Under the pieces are notes generated by a model. That model searched no databases and was not told the origin of the DNA. It saw only the letters and a program-made list of their open reading frames with translations. Positions 10,881 through 44,070 of a DNA stretch of 53,447 bases are shown piece after piece. The position numbers and the translations under genes were made by a program. Position 1 is the stretch's first letter; each line of letters starts with the position of its first letter. Source of the DNA: an uncultured Gammaproteobacteria bacterium (GTDB lineage: Bacteria > Patescibacteriota > Patescibacteriia > Magasanikbacterales > GWA2-37-8). The stretch spans positions 1-53,447 of the forward strand of contig CAYIHE010000001.1 in NCBI GenBank assembly GCA_964363145.1. The letters run 5' to 3'.

Positions 10881-11570
10881 TTACTTTTGATTTACTACAA
10901 CCACAAACTCCCCTCTTTCATCTTTCATTTGTTCTATAATTTGACTAATATTTCCTCGATAAATAGTCTCAAATTTTTTAGTAAGTTCACGGCAAACTAC
11001 CATTTGTCTTTCGGGATTTAACACTTCCTTTAATTCCTGCAGACATTTTTTTATTCTATGGCCTGATTCGTAAAATACAGTTGTATATTCAGCCGCGGCT
11101 ACTTCTTTAAAAAACTTTTGCCTTTTATTTTTATGGGGAGGAAAACCCATGAAAACGAATTTGTCCGTGGGAAATCCGGAGATGGAAAGGGCGGCGACGG
11201 CGGCGCAGGGGCCGGGGATGGGGATTACCTCGGCAACTCCCCCAACCCCCTCTTGGTAAGAGGGGGACACGATTCGTGAAATCAATATTCCTCCCGGGTC
11301 GCTTATTCCAGGCGTGCCGGCATCTGTGACCAAAGCCAGATTTTTACCTTCTTCTAACAAACCAATAATTTCTTTAATTTTTTTGGCTTCAGAGTGCTGG
11401 TGGTAGCTGATAAGCGGTTTGTTGATTTGATAATGATTGAGCAAATTTTTTGTCACCCGCGTATCTTCGCACAAAATAAAATCAACACTTTTTAATGTGT
11501 CCAGTGCGCGCAAAGTAATATCGCCAAGATTCCCAATCGGGGTGGCGACAATATAAAGTTTACCAAACAT
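10881..11570 (-). CDS. rsmI: 16S rRNA (cytidine1402-2'-O)-methyltransferase
   Basis: Start moved to M19 (MFGKLYIVATPIGNLGDITLRALDTLKSVDFILCEDTR), the canonical RsmI N-terminus. The upstream 18 codons overlap a terminator hairpin. Carries a hairpin insert at 11238-11270. Confidence 0.88.
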   Translation of the reverse strand: MFGKLYIVATPIGNLGDITLRALDTLKSVDFILCEDTRVTKNLLNHYQINKPLISYHQHSEAKKIKEIIGLLEEGKNLALVTDAGTPGISDPGGILISRIVSPSYQEGVGGVAEVIPIPGPCAAVAALSISGFPTDKFVFMGFPPHKNKRQKFFKEVAAAEYTTVFYESGHRIKKCLQELKEVLNPERQMVVCRELTKKFETIYRGNISQIIEQMKDERGEFVVVVNQK

Positions 11571-11607
11571 ATACGGTGGTATTTTAGCAAATAAACGATA
11601 AAAAGGC

Positions 11608-11782
11608 AAAAAAATGGGTGCCACCGAAGTAGCACCCCCACAGAGACCAAGAGTCCGAGGATTGAATCTCTGTGTGGCAGAATCTGGAAGGCCTGATCTG
11701 CCTTACGAGGGTACCCATTTGATCTGTTTGATCATCCTCCTGGTTAGGCCGTACATGAGCAATGTACGTCAAAACCCTCGTC
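11608..11782 (-). ncRNA. Candidate structured RNA of ~175 nt (unknown class) or cis-regulatory leader of rsmI
   Basis: Minus-strand TTGACA (11812-11817), 17-nt spacer, TAGATT (11789-11794). Four stems seen by eye. Ends in GGGUGCUAC-UUCG-GUGGCACCC plus U7 (11608-11637). No credible ORF. Confidence 0.4.
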
Positions 11783-11831
11783 CAAGATAATCTAACATAG
11801 GATACCGCTTGTGTCAATATAAAAAGGTTGC

Positions 11832-12260
11832 TCACTTCGCTAGTTTCGCGACAATCCGGCGCAAAAGCCAAAAGAGGCAGAAAAACAGCGCGCCAACACC
11901 GCCCATAATCAAGTCGTTCATGGTGTCGGCGTTGCTTAACTGTGAATGAGTGAAGAAATAAGTATCGGAAATAAGTTCGTAAAATTCCCAGACCACCGCC
12001 ATAGCCATAACAAAATTCAAAATTAAAATAAAATCAATAAAAATATTGGCGGTTTTAATTTTGTTATAATTTTTCGCCAAATCCAAAATGAAGTAGCCGC
12101 TGACGGCCATGCTAAACCCGCCGCTAAAGTGAAATAGGATATTTGGCCACCACCATACATCTTCCGGATTGTATAATAGGTTAAGAGAATGGGAAATAAT
12201 ATACACTAAAAAAGGAAACAGGCAAATTTTTACAATGTCGCTAATTTGGATTTTTTGCAT
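11832..12260 (-). CDS. Hypothetical 4-TM membrane protein
   Basis: 142 aa with hydrophobic segments. Last gene of the co-directional Fe-S block. No family recognised. Confidence 0.55.
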   Translation of the reverse strand: MQKIQISDIVKICLFPFLVYIISHSLNLLYNPEDVWWWPNILFHFSGGFSMAVSGYFILDLAKNYNKIKTANIFIDFILILNFVMAMAVVWEFYELISDTYFFTHSQLSNADTMNDLIMGGVGALFFCLFWLLRRIVAKLAK

Positions 12261-39352: not shown

Positions 39353-40735
39353 ATGACAAGCTACCTTAAACGCTTTTCTTTCAGCGCCTTGCTAATAATT
39401 GGGACGGCTATTTTTACTTTTGTAAACGCGAATACAGCATTGGACGTCCTGGCGCTTTTGCTGATTGTTTTTATTATTTTACAAAAAGTTTTCGGCGAAT
39501 ATTTTGTTTTAATTCTTTTGGCCGCGCGTCCGACGCTGGATTTTTGGCGTGATTTTAGTCTTTTTTCTTTCCGGTCGTTTGAATTTAACATCAATTCGGC
39601 TTTATCCGTATTTTTACTAATTTGGTCAATATATTTTTTTGTAAAAAACCGCGCTTATTTCAAACAAATACCCGCCAAAATTCCCTGGCTGATATTTATG
39701 GGCTGGATTTCTCTTACCGCCATTTACAGCTATGATTTAATTTCTACCATCCGAGAAACGGCCAAAGCCGCCAACCTGTTTGCCTTATTCGGCATTTGCT
39801 TCATAATGTCGATAAAAAACAAAGAAATTTTTGGCAAAAAATTTTTAAAAAGCATGATTGCGGGCGCGATTTTGCCAATGCTTGTGGCCGCTTATCAATT
39901 TTTATCCCGTACCGGCATGGACATAGACGACATTGGTAACAGAATTTACGGCACTTTCGCCCACCCTAATATTTTAGCAACCTATGCCTTGCTTTTATTA
40001 ATAGTTGTAGTGAATGAGTTGTTTATCGCTAAAAATACAACGTTGAAATCCCCGCTTGGGCGGGGTAGGGGTGGGTTGGCCGTGATTTTATTTTTACTGG
40101 CCATAATCGCCTTTACCTACACTCGTATTGCCTGGATCGGCGCGGGAATGCTATTTGTAATTTTGGGCTTGGTTTATTACAGAAAAATTCTGGTGGTGAT
40201 TTTATCCGCCGCGGCTTTATTTTTCGCGCTATTTTATCCGTTAAATAATTATTTAATCCAAAATTATAATATTAATTTACAATCCTCCGGATTAATTTCC
40301 CGCTTAACTTCCCGCAATGAAGATTCTGATTCAATAAAATGGCGCGTAAATTTGGCAAATAAAGTTATGCCTCTTTTCCGCCAACGCTGGCTATTGGGTT
40401 ATGGCTACGGCTCGTTTCCCAAAGTTTGGGACGACAATAAAGACGTGGGGAATATCTGGGATACCACTTCCGAAGCGCATAATGATTATATAAAAGTTGC
40501 TTTTGAATCCGGCGTTGTCGGTTTGCTTTTATTTTTATTTATTTTTGCCAGTTTACTTTACCGACAAATAAATTTTGCCGTAAAAAACCATTGGACAAAC
40601 GTTGTGTTCATAGCCAGTATTGGAATTTATCTGATCTTGAGTCTTTCCGATAATATGTTGCATCACACGCCAATGATTTGGTGGCTGTGGGCGGTGTGGG
40701 GGGTGTGGAGCTACAAGTTGAAAGTTGAAAGTTGA
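39353..40735 (+). CDS. O-antigen ligase (Wzy_C) family membrane protein
   Basis: About 460 aa polytopic protein. SEAHNDYIKVAFESGVVGLLLF motif. ATG at 39353 preferred over the alternative start at 39335. Confidence 0.8.
   Translation: MTSYLKRFSFSALLIIGTAIFTFVNANTALDVLALLLIVFIILQKVFGEYFVLILLAARPTLDFWRDFSLFSFRSFEFNINSALSVFLLIWSIYFFVKNRAYFKQIPAKIPWLIFMGWISLTAIYSYDLISTIRETAKAANLFALFGICFIMSIKNKEIFGKKFLKSMIAGAILPMLVAAYQFLSRTGMDIDDIGNRIYGTFAHPNILATYALLLLIVVVNELFIAKNTTLKSPLGRGRGGLAVILFLLAIIAFTYTRIAWIGAGMLFVILGLVYYRKILVVILSAAALFFALFYPLNNYLIQNYNINLQSSGLISRLTSRNEDSDSIKWRVNLANKVMPLFRQRWLLGYGYGSFPKVWDDNKDVGNIWDTTSEAHNDYIKVAFESGVVGLLLFLFIFASLLYRQINFAVKNHWTNVVFIASIGIYLILSLSDNMLHHTPMIWWLWAVWGVWSYKLKVES
40049..40076. 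repeat. Hairpin module C inside the O-antigen ligase CDS
   Basis: Identical 28-mer to 6122-6149. Read as SPLGRGRGG. Confidence 0.85.
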
Positions 40736-40771
40736 AAGAATAAAGGCGGAGATCACTATCCGCCTCTCACT

Positions 40772-40822
40772 CCGCCGCACACCCATTCGGCTCTGCGGCA
40801 CCAGCGTGCTCGGCGGATTTTT
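40772..40822 (+). terminator. Intrinsic terminator after the O-antigen ligase gene
   Basis: CCGCCG...CGGCGG stem (40772-40816) followed by ATTTTT. Confidence 0.45.
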
Positions 40823-41158
40823 AGCCAGACGGATTTTCCTTATAGGAAAATCTCGTCGCTAAAAACAAAAAACCACCCAGAGAGAGTCACCTAACGAAGT
40901 AATAAATTACTTAGTCGGGTAATCGGGTGGTATTTTTGTTAGGCAGATAAATCTGCCCATTTCCGCTCACTTTATAAATGAACGCAAATGGACAGGTCTG
41001 CCAGCGAAAGCCCCAAAGGGGTCCTTCAATTCTAGTGATTATATTTTTGTACTTTCGTAGCTTTCGTATTTCGTACATAATCATTAAAATTGAAGGGGGG
41101 AAGAGAGTTGCTTAAACAACCGCTATCTCTACTCTCTTCCCCCACCAGGATACTACTC

Positions 41159-41953
41159 CTACTCCATGTTTCGCCCGTCGTACGTGCACTTGAACATGTC
41201 GTAGTAAACCGCGTGATAGAAGGTGCTTTCGACACCGCTCCACTCGATCTGACAGTCAATGGCGACACGATTGCCACCACTCGAGTAACATTCGACCGAG
41301 CAGCTAGAGGCTGGCGCCGCCTTCCACGGATCACCGGCCAGACCGTCGTACAGACTTTCCGGAGGGTAAGTCCCCAACGGAGGTGCTGGCTCGGCGATCT
41401 CGAATCCGCCCCAGAACACGCAGTTCACGGCTGACTCCGACGGCCAAATTTGCATGCCACCGCAATCGGCCAGGGTGTACACACACGTACCTCCCGAGCA
41501 CGAATCGTTCGTCCAGCCCCACCCGTCGTCGCAGTCCGCATCATCGTCGCAGGCCGGACAGACCGCGTCCGGCGTGGCCGCGTCCACAGGGGTGGGCGGC
41601 GGGGTCGCATCGGGCGGCGAGGCATCCGGTGGCGGCACAGTGGCCGCGTCGGGCGTGGGCGGAACGGCGGCGTCCGGGCTCGGAACCGAAGCATCCACAG
41701 TGGGTGGAACGGCGGCGTCCGGGGTCTCGGGAACCGTCGCGTCCGGCGTGGCCGGGGTGGCCGCGTCGCACTCGGGCGTGTTGCCCGCGTCCGGCGTCGT
41801 GACCGGGACGGTCGCGTCGGGCTCCATCGGCGACGGAGTCGCGTCGACCTCCTCGGTCGGCGGCTCGGCGTCGGGCAGATCCTGCAGCGGCAGGTCCTCC
41901 ATGAGGCAACCCGTCGCGCCAAGAACACACATCAAGAACAGACTCTTCATCAT
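41159..41953 (-). CDS. High-GC Pro/Thr/Asp/Ala-repeat, Cys-rich putative lipoprotein
   Basis: Start at MMKSLFLMCVLGATGC (signal peptide plus lipobox-like Cys). SD GAGGAG at 41962-41967. PDA(A/T)VPP repeats. CPACDDDADCDDGWGWTNDSCSGGTC block. Confidence 0.7.
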   Translation of the reverse strand: MMKSLFLMCVLGATGCLMEDLPLQDLPDAEPPTEEVDATPSPMEPDATVPVTTPDAGNTPECDAATPATPDATVPETPDAAVPPTVDASVPSPDAAVPPTPDAATVPPPDASPPDATPPPTPVDAATPDAVCPACDDDADCDDGWGWTNDSCSGGTCVYTLADCGGMQIWPSESAVNCVFWGGFEIAEPAPPLGTYPPESLYDGLAGDPWKAAPASSCSVECYSSGGNRVAIDCQIEWSGVESTFYHAVYYDMFKCTYDGRNME

Positions 41954-42046
41954 TGTCTCATCTCCTCTGGCCGCATCCGTGCGACCATATCTCGAACGTG
42001 ATCTCCACTCCAACCAACGGCATCATTGCCATGGTTGTAGTTTTTT

Positions 42047-42120
42047 TGTCATCCTGAACATAGTGAAGGATCTCTGTCCGTTTGATTGGACAAAATTTCT
42101 TCGCTTTGTTCAGAATGACA
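42047..42120. repeat. Family B element inside the high-GC island
   Basis: TGTCATCCTGAACATAGTGAAGGATCTCTGTCC...TTCGCTTTGTTCAGAATGACA. AT-rich like the host. Confidence 0.85.
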
Positions 42121-42174
42121 AGGTAAATTCATTTTAAGGTGCTTTTTCGATCTGTTTCATATTCCTATTTCTAC

Positions 42175-42212
42175 CAGACAGAGATCCCTCACCTGGATGG
42201 TTCGGGATGACA
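42175..42212. repeat. Half family-B element
   Basis: CAGACAGAGATCCCTCACCTGGATGGTTCGGGATGACA. Confidence 0.65.
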
Positions 42213-42302
42213 ATCGTGAGTGGAATAAGGATATGAATGAATCGCCCTGCACCAGCCGACTCCTTTTGGGAATCAACTGGCGCAGGGAACTGCTGTGGGG
42301 AC

Positions 42303-42998
42303 TTACCTCCCCCACAAGTAGGACAGGTTGAAGCCGCTTACGGCGGCGTACTCTTGGGGAGTGTCCCCGTGAGCGCGCGAACCGCGCACACCGTAGGAAA
42401 CATACCCCTCAAGCAACATCCCGGCCTTTTCTACCGCTACCCGGAAAGACGGGCCGTAGAACGTCTCGTTCCAGGTCTCGCGTGGATGCGAGTCCTGGTT
42501 GATGGTTCCGAGCAGGTCGAAACCGACCCCGAAAGCCACGATCTTCGTATCCGGCGTTGCGTAGCACATGACGGCTACGGAGCTGGACACGGAGATGGTG
42601 TTGAAGCGGCCATCGCCCAGTCCGGCCCGGGCGCGAATGCGCCACGGCGAGGACTTGAAGCCGATCTGACCGACGAGGTCGGCTGTGATCGCCAGACCGC
42701 CACTTGGGTCTCCAAGCAGGTAGGCGTAGCCGAAGCCGATGCCTCCACGAAGGGAGGTGTCGGACTTCTCCTCCACCACGACGAGCCGGGTGGGGGCCGC
42801 CAGCGCCACCTTCTTCTTGAAGAATGGGACCGGGATGAGAACCTCGATGGTGAGGGTCTCACCGGCCTTGGGGGCCGAGAAGACCATTGGCTTGTCGGCG
42901 TCTTCGGCCGACACGGTGACGGTCTTGTCCTCGGCGCGAGCGTTCGTCACGCCTACGGCACAGAACATCAGAAACACCATCTGCTTCGCATTCTTCAT
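42303..42998 (-). CDS. High-GC secreted protein with an outer-membrane beta-barrel-like pattern
   Basis: 231 aa. Signal peptide MKNAKQMVFLMFCAVGVTNARA. About 8 alternating-hydrophobic strands (GIGFGYAYLLG, KIVAFGVGFDLLG, YAAVSGFNLSYLW). SD GAGGAG at 43007-43012. Confidence 0.65.
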   Translation of the reverse strand: MKNAKQMVFLMFCAVGVTNARAEDKTVTVSAEDADKPMVFSAPKAGETLTIEVLIPVPFFKKKVALAAPTRLVVVEEKSDTSLRGGIGFGYAYLLGDPSGGLAITADLVGQIGFKSSPWRIRARAGLGDGRFNTISVSSSVAVMCYATPDTKIVAFGVGFDLLGTINQDSHPRETWNETFYGPSFRVAVEKAGMLLEGYVSYGVRGSRAHGDTPQEYAAVSGFNLSYLWGR

Positions 42999-43226
42999 CT
43001 TCTCGTCTCCTCTGGTCCCGCTCCTGCGGGGCCGTTTGTGAATTGTAAAAAACGATCTTCTTCATCCCCCCACCACTATTAGTGAGGAGACCAAGTGATC
43101 GTGCGAGTGGTTTAGACTCGCACGGGGTAGGCATGATCCCGATTCGCCGGTTGGCAAATGGGACACATGTGTTGGTCGGTGAGGGACCTGCCATGCACCG
43201 GTCGCCCTAGGCGACCTGGTGCGGGG

Positions 43227-43784
43227 CTACTCCTCGCCGAAATACACGGGCTCCAGCCTCGGCACGACTACGATCGTGCCGAGCTGGGTTGAGACAGGCG
43301 CGGCCCTGATGGCCGCAACCTCCTGCTCGACGGCCTCGACCCTTTGCCGAACGTTCTGCGCGTACTTGCGCAGATCGCGGCGGTTGGCCTTCTTGGCGTC
43401 GTCCAGATCGACCAAGTCGGCCTTGGTCTTGAGATCGCTCAGGTCGGCCTTGCTGGCCTGCAGCTTCTTGATCTCGCTGAGGAGGCCTGCGGCGGACTGG
43501 CGGTCCGTCACTGCGTCGGCCTCCAAGACCCCAGTCCTTTTCTCGACCTGGAGTATGCGAACCTGCAGCATGGTGATGTCCGCGCCGGTCTGGGCCGTCT
43601 GGGCCTTGACCGTGGCCGCGCTGTTGTCGCGCGACACCTTGCCTTGGCAAGTGACAGCCAGGAGAACCAGTGTCGCGGCCAAGATCATGGCCATGAAAAC
43701 CGCAAATGCTACCGGCTTGCGCTGTGGCCGCTTCGTCACCGCCGTCGACTCGTCCGGATTTCCACCGTTCTGCTGTCCGCTCAT
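43227..43784 (-). CDS. High-GC single-pass membrane protein with a coiled-coil ectodomain
   Basis: 185 aa. TM segment VAFAVFMAMILAATLVLLAV, then heptad-like LQVRILQVEKR...LLSEIKKLQASKADLSDLK. SD GAGGAG at 43792-43797. Confidence 0.65.
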   Translation of the reverse strand: MSGQQNGGNPDESTAVTKRPQRKPVAFAVFMAMILAATLVLLAVTCQGKVSRDNSAATVKAQTAQTGADITMLQVRILQVEKRTGVLEADAVTDRQSAAGLLSEIKKLQASKADLSDLKTKADLVDLDDAKKANRRDLRKYAQNVRQRVEAVEQEVAAIRAAPVSTQLGTIVVVPRLEPVYFGEE

Positions 43785-43846
43785 GTTCTTTCTCCTCTCG
43801 GTCAGTTCACCCTCGTCTTGGCCACACGGCCTACGAAGGGTTTGAT

Positions 43847-43938
43847 TGTCATTCTGAACCTAATAAAGAATTTCTGCTTTGTAAAACAGACAGAGATTCT
43901 TCACTACGTTCAGAATGACAATTGGTGACAGAATGACA
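43847..43938. repeat. Family B element with duplicated right terminus at the island border
   Basis: TGTCATTCTGAACC...GACAGAGATTCTTCACTACGTTCAGAATGACA (to 43920), plus a second ACAGAATGACA (43928-43938). Confidence 0.85.
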
Positions 43939-44070
43939 ATCGGATAATTGGTGGACTTATGTTTTAAAACAGCAAAACCTCCGTATGAGAGAGGTTGTAA
44001 AAGGTTTGACGACCCGCGCAATATTCTCTCGATATTGTTGGGCCGGTCTTTAACTTTTAAAAGACGTATT

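Follow-up and report, generated by a model that had tools for sequence, protein, structure and literature searches.

In the 53,447-nt stretch of contig CAYIHE010000001.1 analysed here (in its entirety "the window"), the ~260-nt spacer between a DUF2238-type gene and the methyltransferase gene rsmI is predicted to encode an independent accessory small RNA (sRNA) of ~176 nt, with a transcription unit of its own, rather than a riboswitch or a leader of rsmI. The window is part of a genome of Candidatus Magasanikbacteria (candidate phyla radiation (CPR)/Patescibacteria; G000 in the following), and the RNA, its promoter and rsmI all lie on the minus strand. As far as sequence analysis can tell, we are dealing with a genuine, uncatalogued gene for a small structured RNA, which a comparison of two sequences indicates to be under purifying selection as a structure, and which, judging from the genomes searched, is confined to ultra-small CPR bacteria from groundwater, and to just two or three species of these. 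Our best guess for its role is one related to the Shine–Dalgarno (SD)/anti-SD interaction. Taken as a whole, we consider it probable that the spacer holds an accessory gene for a structured RNA of this size which may work through an SD/anti-SD-like mechanism and seems to be moved or lost in the manner of a cassette.

To our knowledge, regulatory RNAs of CPR/Patescibacteria are essentially uncharacterised. The present RNA offers a clean small case: it seems to be kept by selection, yet at this one spacer close relatives either have the cassette or lack it, and although SD sequences are hardly used in the genome, it carries both halves of a potential SD:anti-SD helix. If the SD-related role is correct, the RNA would be informative on the way in which SD-poor bacteria deal with their few SD-led, often foreign, genes; if not, it would be one more narrow, lineage-specific sRNA.

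A structured RNA outside the known families

The earlier note on this DNA, made from the sequence alone, had described a promoter, a terminator and four stems in the spacer without being able to assign the RNA to a family. When the Rfam/Infernal scan that it had suggested was run, Rfam 15 at gathering thresholds matched no family anywhere in the window, and lowering the threshold to E <= 10 for positions 11300–12100 yielded only two chance matches on the plus strand (rox2 and CRISPR-DR9). The minus-strand promoter, TTGACA-17-TAGATT, is present as described (11817–11789); with a score of 10/12, it resembles a promoter more closely than any other site between 10500 and 13000. The terminator is likewise as described, with a 9-bp stem, a UUCG loop and a U7 tract that ends 37–38 nt ahead of the rsmI ATG at 11570. 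Both transcript ends are predictions, the 5′ end being taken 6–8 nt after the –10 hexamer and the 3′ end being placed in the U-tract. In terms of sequence prediction, the near-consensus promoter of its own and the strong terminator lacking a competing fold mark the RNA as an independent unit.

Folding gave minimum free energies of –70.7 to –71.7 kcal/mol, compared to –52 to –53 kcal/mol for the dinucleotide shuffles that served as background (z = –4.1 and –4.4). The predicted architecture comprises a three-way domain closed by helix P1, which encloses P2, P3 and the largely single-stranded joining segment J2/3, followed by the hairpins P4 and P5 and the terminator (Table 1). All four stems recognised previously (P1, P2, P4 and P5) are found in this fold, and the small P3 comes in addition.

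Homologues and covariation

The comparative set consists of two full-length members and a partial one. The second full-length member, 195 nt in length, was found in another species of the same genus (G007), at exactly the same site between the DUF2238-type gene and rsmI, with a TTGACA-17-TAGTAT promoter and a terminator of its own. A covariance model (CM) built from the G000 sequence alone (R1) scored 234.7 bits on this sequence itself and 50.3 bits on the G007 homologue. In its public record, the G007 contig (C140) carries the label "uncultured Gammaproteobacteria bacterium", which is probably wrong given that its genes and relatives belong to Candidatus Magasanikbacteria/Patescibacteria.

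A MAFFT alignment of the two RNAs misaligned their 5′ halves and was replaced by a CM-guided alignment, which is fitted to the model and from which all pairing counts derive. Here, 95.6% of pair cells hold standard pairs, versus 34–44% if the 3′ partners are slid by 1–3 columns. Twelve pairs differ on both sides between G000 and G007, all in P1, P2 and P5, so that the conservation and covariation in relatives which the earlier note had proposed to look for are indeed seen in the G007 homologue. For P5, the model counts five compensatory pairs, three of which are evident by eye in the core stem, while the inner stem, outside the model, contributes a further compensatory change (CAA/UUG to CAG/CUG, by eye). 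The terminator of G007 shows three one-sided changes that keep the pairing. As for primary sequence, the two RNAs are 65% identical overall, with P4 (22/27) and CUAACCAGGAGG (12/12) standing out, at a divergence where the neighbouring rsmI genes agree at only 46% of four-fold-type third codon positions, i.e. near saturation. Compensatory helix changes together with conserved blocks at near-saturated synonymous divergence point to purifying selection on the structure of the RNA. Around P3, the G007 homologue (~280–310 of locus L010) contains a 13-nt tandem duplication (CGGGUGAUUUAC / CGGGUGAUUCAU), making the domain longer than in G000.

The partial member comes from a neighbouring genus (G020), where a model of both full-length sequences (R2) found a 27-nt match to P4 on a 1040-nt contig (L046, G020:C69). 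Its P4 stem reads GGUGG/CCACC instead of GGCAG/CUGCC, amounting to two compensatory changes, and the loop GAUCGGUNCUUCCUGAC is kept, as are the P1 strands (GCGAUGG ... AUCG) and the stretch UGGNUAAC. The G020 copy differs in the domain enclosed by P1 and in its 3′ part, and has AAGAAG in place of AGGAGG. The CUUCC of the P4 apex is invariant in all three sequences. A gene for an ORF6N/phage Rha-type regulatory protein (L046, 46–591, plus strand) converges on this RNA copy, a phage-type neighbour which hints that the RNA family travels with phage-like DNA.

A patchy, cassette-like distribution

Altogether, 2–3 of the 240 genomes of the order carry the RNA. Among 100 genomes of the family, R1 retrieved only the G007 homologue as a real match (a terminator-only match in G006 was rejected); R2 found nothing beyond G000 and G007 in 41 relatives except for the P4 match in G020; and a third model confined to the P4 core (R3) added nothing new from 151 genomes of the order. 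Searching the 41 relatives with the element by BLAST gave only a terminator-like match of 32 nt. With a degenerate P4 pattern, candidates were obtained in G062, G072, G198 and G224 (100 genomes of the family, 240 of the order), all of which lie inside long open reading frames (ORFs) and were rejected. In wider collections, exact-pattern scans returned only G007 and one in-gene chance match in a metagenome-assembled genome of Chloroflexota from the GTDB representatives, eight hairpin-only matches from the JGI metagenomes, all failing the CM, and nothing or chance matches from IMG/VR, and blastn against phage and plasmid collections found no match. Membership in a repeat family was considered and rejected, as the element is single-copy in G000, where only its T-rich promoter region recurs. 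Similarly, T-rich stretches like the TTGCCTTTTT region of the rsmI promoter occur many times in the genome.

The closest relatives at the locus were fetched from a large protein collection using rsmI as a handle. In 40 relatives, the DUF2238–rsmI spacer or its equivalent measures only ~40–110 nt, and full-model scoring with the filters off detected no copy of the RNA at 22 related rsmI loci. The nearest relative of G000, with an rsmI 90% identical and the same Fd-Fd-DUF2238-rsmI gene order, has a 48-nt spacer devoid of the RNA, in which the stop codon is directly followed by the rsmI promoter. The nearest relatives of G007 (rsmI 84–86% identical) also lack the RNA and have a spacer of 41 nt. 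Presence of the RNA at the same spacer in two non-sister species and its absence from the sisters of both imply that it was either precisely lost more than once or gained more than once. A 9-nt direct repeat flanks the G000 cassette, its right copy falling into the –35 region of the rsmI promoter. A shared 9-mer between the two junctions arose in only 10 of 5000 shuffles. The repeat might have arisen as a target duplication or might serve as a substrate for precise deletion, a reading that is suggestive only and stays a hint because G007 shows just 7 nt. The patchy distribution and the diverged copy beside a phage-type gene suggest that the RNA moves, or is lost, as a cassette.

SD-like and anti-SD-like elements

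In this genus, the 16S rRNA tail reads GGAUCACCUCCUUUCU, with the canonical anti-SD retained. AGGAGG-A-UGAUC, that is J2/3 together with the AUGAUC that follows, is therefore an 11-nt complement of the tail with a single bulge, bearing out the previous observation that the RNA carries a near-full complement of the 16S 3′ end. The accompanying claim that native genes lack SD sequences is approximately right: in a crude call of 923 ORFs in G000, GGAGG or AGGAGG precedes the first start in 37 (~4%), leaving a minority of genes that do have an SD. Members of this minority possess textbook AGGAGG boxes after A/C-rich leaders such as CAACCAACCAGGAGG (e.g. C41:1944, C10:345, C14:15913, C18 on the minus strand, C78 and C13). 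The gene on C41, of the histidine phosphatase family, immediately follows a tRNA gene and a hairpin, an arrangement that resembles an integrated element.

According to the explanation we favour, a sigma-70-type promoter of its own would drive transcription of the RNA, which would end at an intrinsic terminator acting unconditionally; the cassette occupies the interval from the stop codon of the DUF2238-type gene to the intact promoter of rsmI. Between (C)AGGAGG as the purine strand and the P4 apex CCUUCC(U)G, an SD:anti-SD-like helix might then form. This helix may hold the RNA in a compact fold as an internal pseudoknot, or the P4 apex may instead act in trans, binding the purine-rich ribosome binding site (RBS) of the few SD-led, mostly accessory mRNAs and dampening their translation. 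By eye, CAGGAGG and CCUUCCUG can form 7 bp in G007 and 5+1 in G000, and CAAGAAGU and ACUUCCUG of G020 match at 7/8 positions, including a G-U to A-U change.

Several observations weigh against this explanation. The pseudoknot lacks a true double compensatory change, and by our estimate, chance alone would produce a 7/8 complement within an 80-nt domain in about half of all cases. Neither CCUUCC nor the UCCU of P5 is a freely exposed seed: the former lies half inside the upper P4 stem, with only CCUU predicted to be unpaired in G000, and the latter is inside a mini-stem. G020 lacks the AGGAGG motif. When 931 start regions were scanned for duplexes, the best L4 match (–20.4 kcal/mol) fell within the range of shuffled seeds (–19.7 to –22.6 kcal/mol), and hence no target can be named. 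The covariation, moreover, is based on very few sequences in a model-fitted alignment, and a register shift of one base accounts for part of the P1 count, G007 having in effect one extra U-A pair. Lastly, the 5′ and 3′ ends on which the transcript is modelled are themselves predicted.

Alternative explanations

The earlier note had left a choice between an independent sRNA and a riboswitch- or attenuator-type leader. In the latter, cis-acting case, a ligand (e.g. S-adenosylmethionine (SAM) or methionine) would choose between termination at 11616–11608 and read-through into rsmI–metG. Such leaders classically have the order of promoter, structured domain, terminator and gene seen here, where 38 nt separate the terminator from the rsmI ATG; junction and loop nucleotides are kept while stems covary, as in an aptamer; and by eye the 3′ strand of P1 (GUACCC or UAACC) could pair weakly with the 5′ arm of the terminator in both species. 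Yet a conserved rsmI promoter intervenes between terminator and ATG (TTGCTT-17-TAGCAT at this position in G007), and rsmI is immediately preceded by a near-identical promoter in relatives lacking the RNA (L005, L008 and L064). The rsmI ATG, placed through alignment with relatives, follows its own –10 by ~11 nt and has no SD, and a read-through transcript would thus offer an internal, SD-less start that is presumably poorly translated. When the 3′ arm of the terminator was withheld from folding, P1–P5 stayed intact in G000, the 5′ arm formed only a weak local hairpin, and no conserved alternative partner for it appeared in G007, so the terminator looks unconditional. As no riboswitch model matched at E <= 10, the RNA is missing from the 22 related rsmI loci, its G020 copy neighbours an ORF6N/Rha gene instead of rsmI, and a range of 2–3 species is atypical for riboswitches, we regard the leader as quite improbable. 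The independent sRNA, the other option of that note, gains from its own promoter and terminator, from the compensatory changes in G007 and from the position of the cassette upstream of an intact ancestral rsmI promoter. A small protein gene would have to be either a sense ORF after the AGGAGG or a 58-aa antisense ORF (11614–11790), and AUG codons do follow an AGGAGG, just as both species have an antisense frame that runs open through the element. The sense AUGs, however, are either 0 nt or 17–35 nt away from the SD, and the resulting peptides of 10 and 44 (G000) and 11 (G007) residues are not conserved; the antisense peptides are about one-quarter identical (by eye) and lack a promoter or start context; and substitutions are compensatory in stems instead of codon-like. 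With no ORF on either strand conserved between the two homologues, the description of the region as free of credible ORFs holds, and we find a protein-coding function very hard to believe.

Two further explanations concern mobile DNA. The RNA could be a decaying or domesticated remnant of a mobile SD-led cassette, composed of a promoter, a leader with AACCAGGAGG, an ORF since lost and a terminator, whose present role is incidental, e.g. terminating the upstream operon. Many leaders of SD-led accessory genes are A/C-rich, such as AACCAGGAGG, and J2/3 resembles them (examples being AACCAGGAGGCAGATCATG after the tRNA gene on C41, and the start region GGCCCACAACCAAAAGGAG..., the reverse complement of the top duplex match by eye); the occurrence at one spacer of two non-sister species whose nearest relatives lack the RNA, the 9-nt repeat around the G000 copy, and the phage-type gene beside the G020 copy on its 1-kb contig would fit as well. 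A dead remnant, though, is not expected to show compensatory helix changes and perfectly conserved loop blocks at near-saturated divergence, the copies share no ORF trace, and the phage, plasmid and IMG/VR collections contain no match, all of which leaves a remnant unlikely, if still worth bearing in mind. Somewhat less likely again is a mobile "SD/anti-SD mimic" cassette, in which, against a background of core genes that begin translation without an SD, the 11-nt 16S-tail complement and the anti-SD look-alike would titrate 30S subunits from, or mask, SD-led accessory or phage mRNAs; if true, it would represent control at the RNA level of, or immunity to, foreign-type translation. Finally, since neither signal recognition particle (SRP) RNA nor 6S RNA is detectable anywhere in G000, a divergent version of either, missed by the Rfam models in this lineage, was considered. 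The size of ~176 nt would be suitable, and ACCAGG and AAGGCAGAU recall stretches of the E. coli 4.5S RNA. However, a housekeeping RNA should not be limited to 2–3 of 240 genomes of an order, and a helix 8 capped by GNRA and containing symmetric and asymmetric loops is missing from the fold, as is a rod with a central bubble. In addition, the order has no detectable Ffh M domain and G000 no SRP-type GTPase, and a lineage without Ffh excludes an SRP RNA. Distribution and Ffh absence effectively refute the housekeeping reading, to which we attach next to no credence.

Individual candidate classes were rejected on similar grounds. SRP RNA (RF00169/RF01854) has no match in G000 or any of 16 genomes of the genus, and the apex of P4 is CCUU, not GNRA. 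6S RNA (RF00013) has no match in G000, and the predicted fold is a three-way junction plus hairpins. As to a CsrB/RsmZ-type sponge, AGGA is placed in a mini-loop of J2/3 and GGA is present in P5, but such a role is unlikely given that no CsrA (PF02599) was found in G000.

Apparent absence of the SRP pathway from the order

The search for an SRP partner had a result of its own. The Ffh M domain (PF02978) was found in none of the 240 genomes of the order (completeness of 90% or more in 204), whereas all 14 controls were positive. PF00448 gave only partial matches at the level of the P-loop in the genus, and the SRP-GTPase signature GxxGxGK[TS][TS]...DTxGR does not occur in any reading frame of G000. 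Together with the negative SRP RNA searches, the order appears, on these profile and motif searches, to be devoid of the whole SRP pathway. We found no paper stating SRP loss in the order, and this absence may matter more than the RNA itself.

Comparison with known regulatory RNAs

sRNAs that mask an RBS through conserved anti-SD or C-rich loops while their stems vary have been described in rhizobia (alpha-r14/NfeR1; PMC10746234) and Staphylococcus (RsaA/RNAIII; PMC3961350). The trans-acting alpha-r14/NfeR1 sRNAs present the anti-SD motif CCUCCUCCC in unpaired regions of three hairpins (PMC10746234). The RNA described here shares with them an independent (here predicted) transcription, a similar size and several hairpins, as well as stem sequences that differ between homologues around a retained pyrimidine-rich, anti-SD-like motif, for which RBS occlusion is proposed. 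It matches alpha-r14/NfeR1 neither in sequence nor in Rfam; its motif is a single, partly paired CCUUCC, it also has, unlike alpha-r14, a complementary SD-like strand, and the host phylum is CPR, with 2–3 species.

With RsaA, RsaE/RoxS and RNAIII (UCCC hairpins; PMC3961350), it has in common a conserved pyrimidine hairpin loop, a Hfq-independent style and a proposed pairing to SD sequences; as in the Staphylococcal/Bacillus C-rich-loop sRNAs, a promoter of its own is combined with a Rho-independent terminator. It departs from these sRNAs by the lack of an Rfam match, another motif, and a fold of a three-way junction plus two hairpins; with SD sequences at only ~4% of genes, its target pool would be a small accessory set. 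The succession of promoter, P1-closed domain, terminator and gene for a SAM-dependent enzyme is reminiscent of transcription-terminating riboswitches (e.g. the SAM classes), in contrast to which the RNA is followed by a promoter after its terminator, has no antiterminator, matches no model and is not linked to rsmI across relatives.

Features of the locus

Coordinates of the RNA, its signals and the adjacent genes are compiled in Table 1. Downstream, rsmI is followed by metG. For the G000 copy of the 142-aa membrane protein encoded upstream, the Pfam search gave no match.

Table 1. Features in and around the DUF2238–rsmI spacer (window coordinates)
Feature	Position	Strand	Remarks
Upstream gene, 142-aa DUF2238-type membrane protein	11832..12260	–	ORF; last gene of Fe-S/ThiI operon; orthologues annotated PF09997 DUF2238
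Left copy of 9-nt direct repeat CCTTTTTAT	11819..11827	–	flanks cassette
–35 hexamer TTGACA of RNA promoter	11812..11817	–	perfect TTGACA also at same position in G007 homologue
–10 hexamer TAGATT	11789..11794	–	17-nt spacer, TG one base upstream; G007 has TTGACA-17-TAGTAT
Predicted transcript, ~176 nt, ORF-free	11608..11783	–	ends from promoter and terminator
P1, 5′ strand CGAGGGU	11774..11780	–	pairs with 11706–11712; G007 CGAUGG/CCAUCG, both strands changed; G020 GCGAUGG...AUCG
P2 hairpin CGUACAU-UGCUC-AUGUACG	11750..11768	–	G007: unrelated sequence, also hairpin (GCUGUU-AUUAAA-AACAGC)
J2/3 motif CUAACCAGGAGG, SD-like, mostly unpaired	11736..11747	–	identical over 12 nt in G000 and G007; degenerate (CCAAGAAGU) in G020
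P3 mini-hairpin (U)GAUC-AAACA-GAUC(A)	11720..11734	–	longer in G007: GAUCAC-UUUCGG-GUGAUU
P1, 3′ strand ACCCUCG	11706..11712	–	predicted fold, alignment
P4 hairpin GGCAG-AUCAGGCCUUCCAGAUU-CUGCC (GGCAGAUC...CUGCC)	11676..11702	–	pyrimidine CCUUCC apex; most conserved module
P5 long hairpin CACAGAGAU...GUCUCUGUG (CACAGAGA...UCUCUGUG)	11639..11674	–	inner CAA/UUG and UC/GA stem, CUCG loop
Intrinsic terminator GGGUGCUAC-UUCG-GUGGCACCC	11616..11637	–	stem-loop; 9 pairs, 6 of them G-C
U7 tract of terminator	11608..11614	–	follows terminator stem
rsmI promoter TTGCCT-17-TAAAAT, TG-extended	11581..11609	–	downstream of terminator, begins inside U-tract
Right copy of 9-nt direct repeat CCTTTTTAT	11598..11606	–	inside –35 region of rsmI promoter
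rsmI (TP_methylase), ATG at 11570, no SD	10881..11570	–	Pfam PF00590, E = 1.7e-32

Elsewhere in the window, G+C content rises to 0.52–0.57 at 40001–44000 compared to ~0.42 in the remainder, yet no rRNA, tRNA or other Rfam family was detected across the 53 kb. At the locus itself, rsmI and its orthologues start 6–14 nt after a TG-extended –10 element without an SD, and these genes look leaderless or nearly so.

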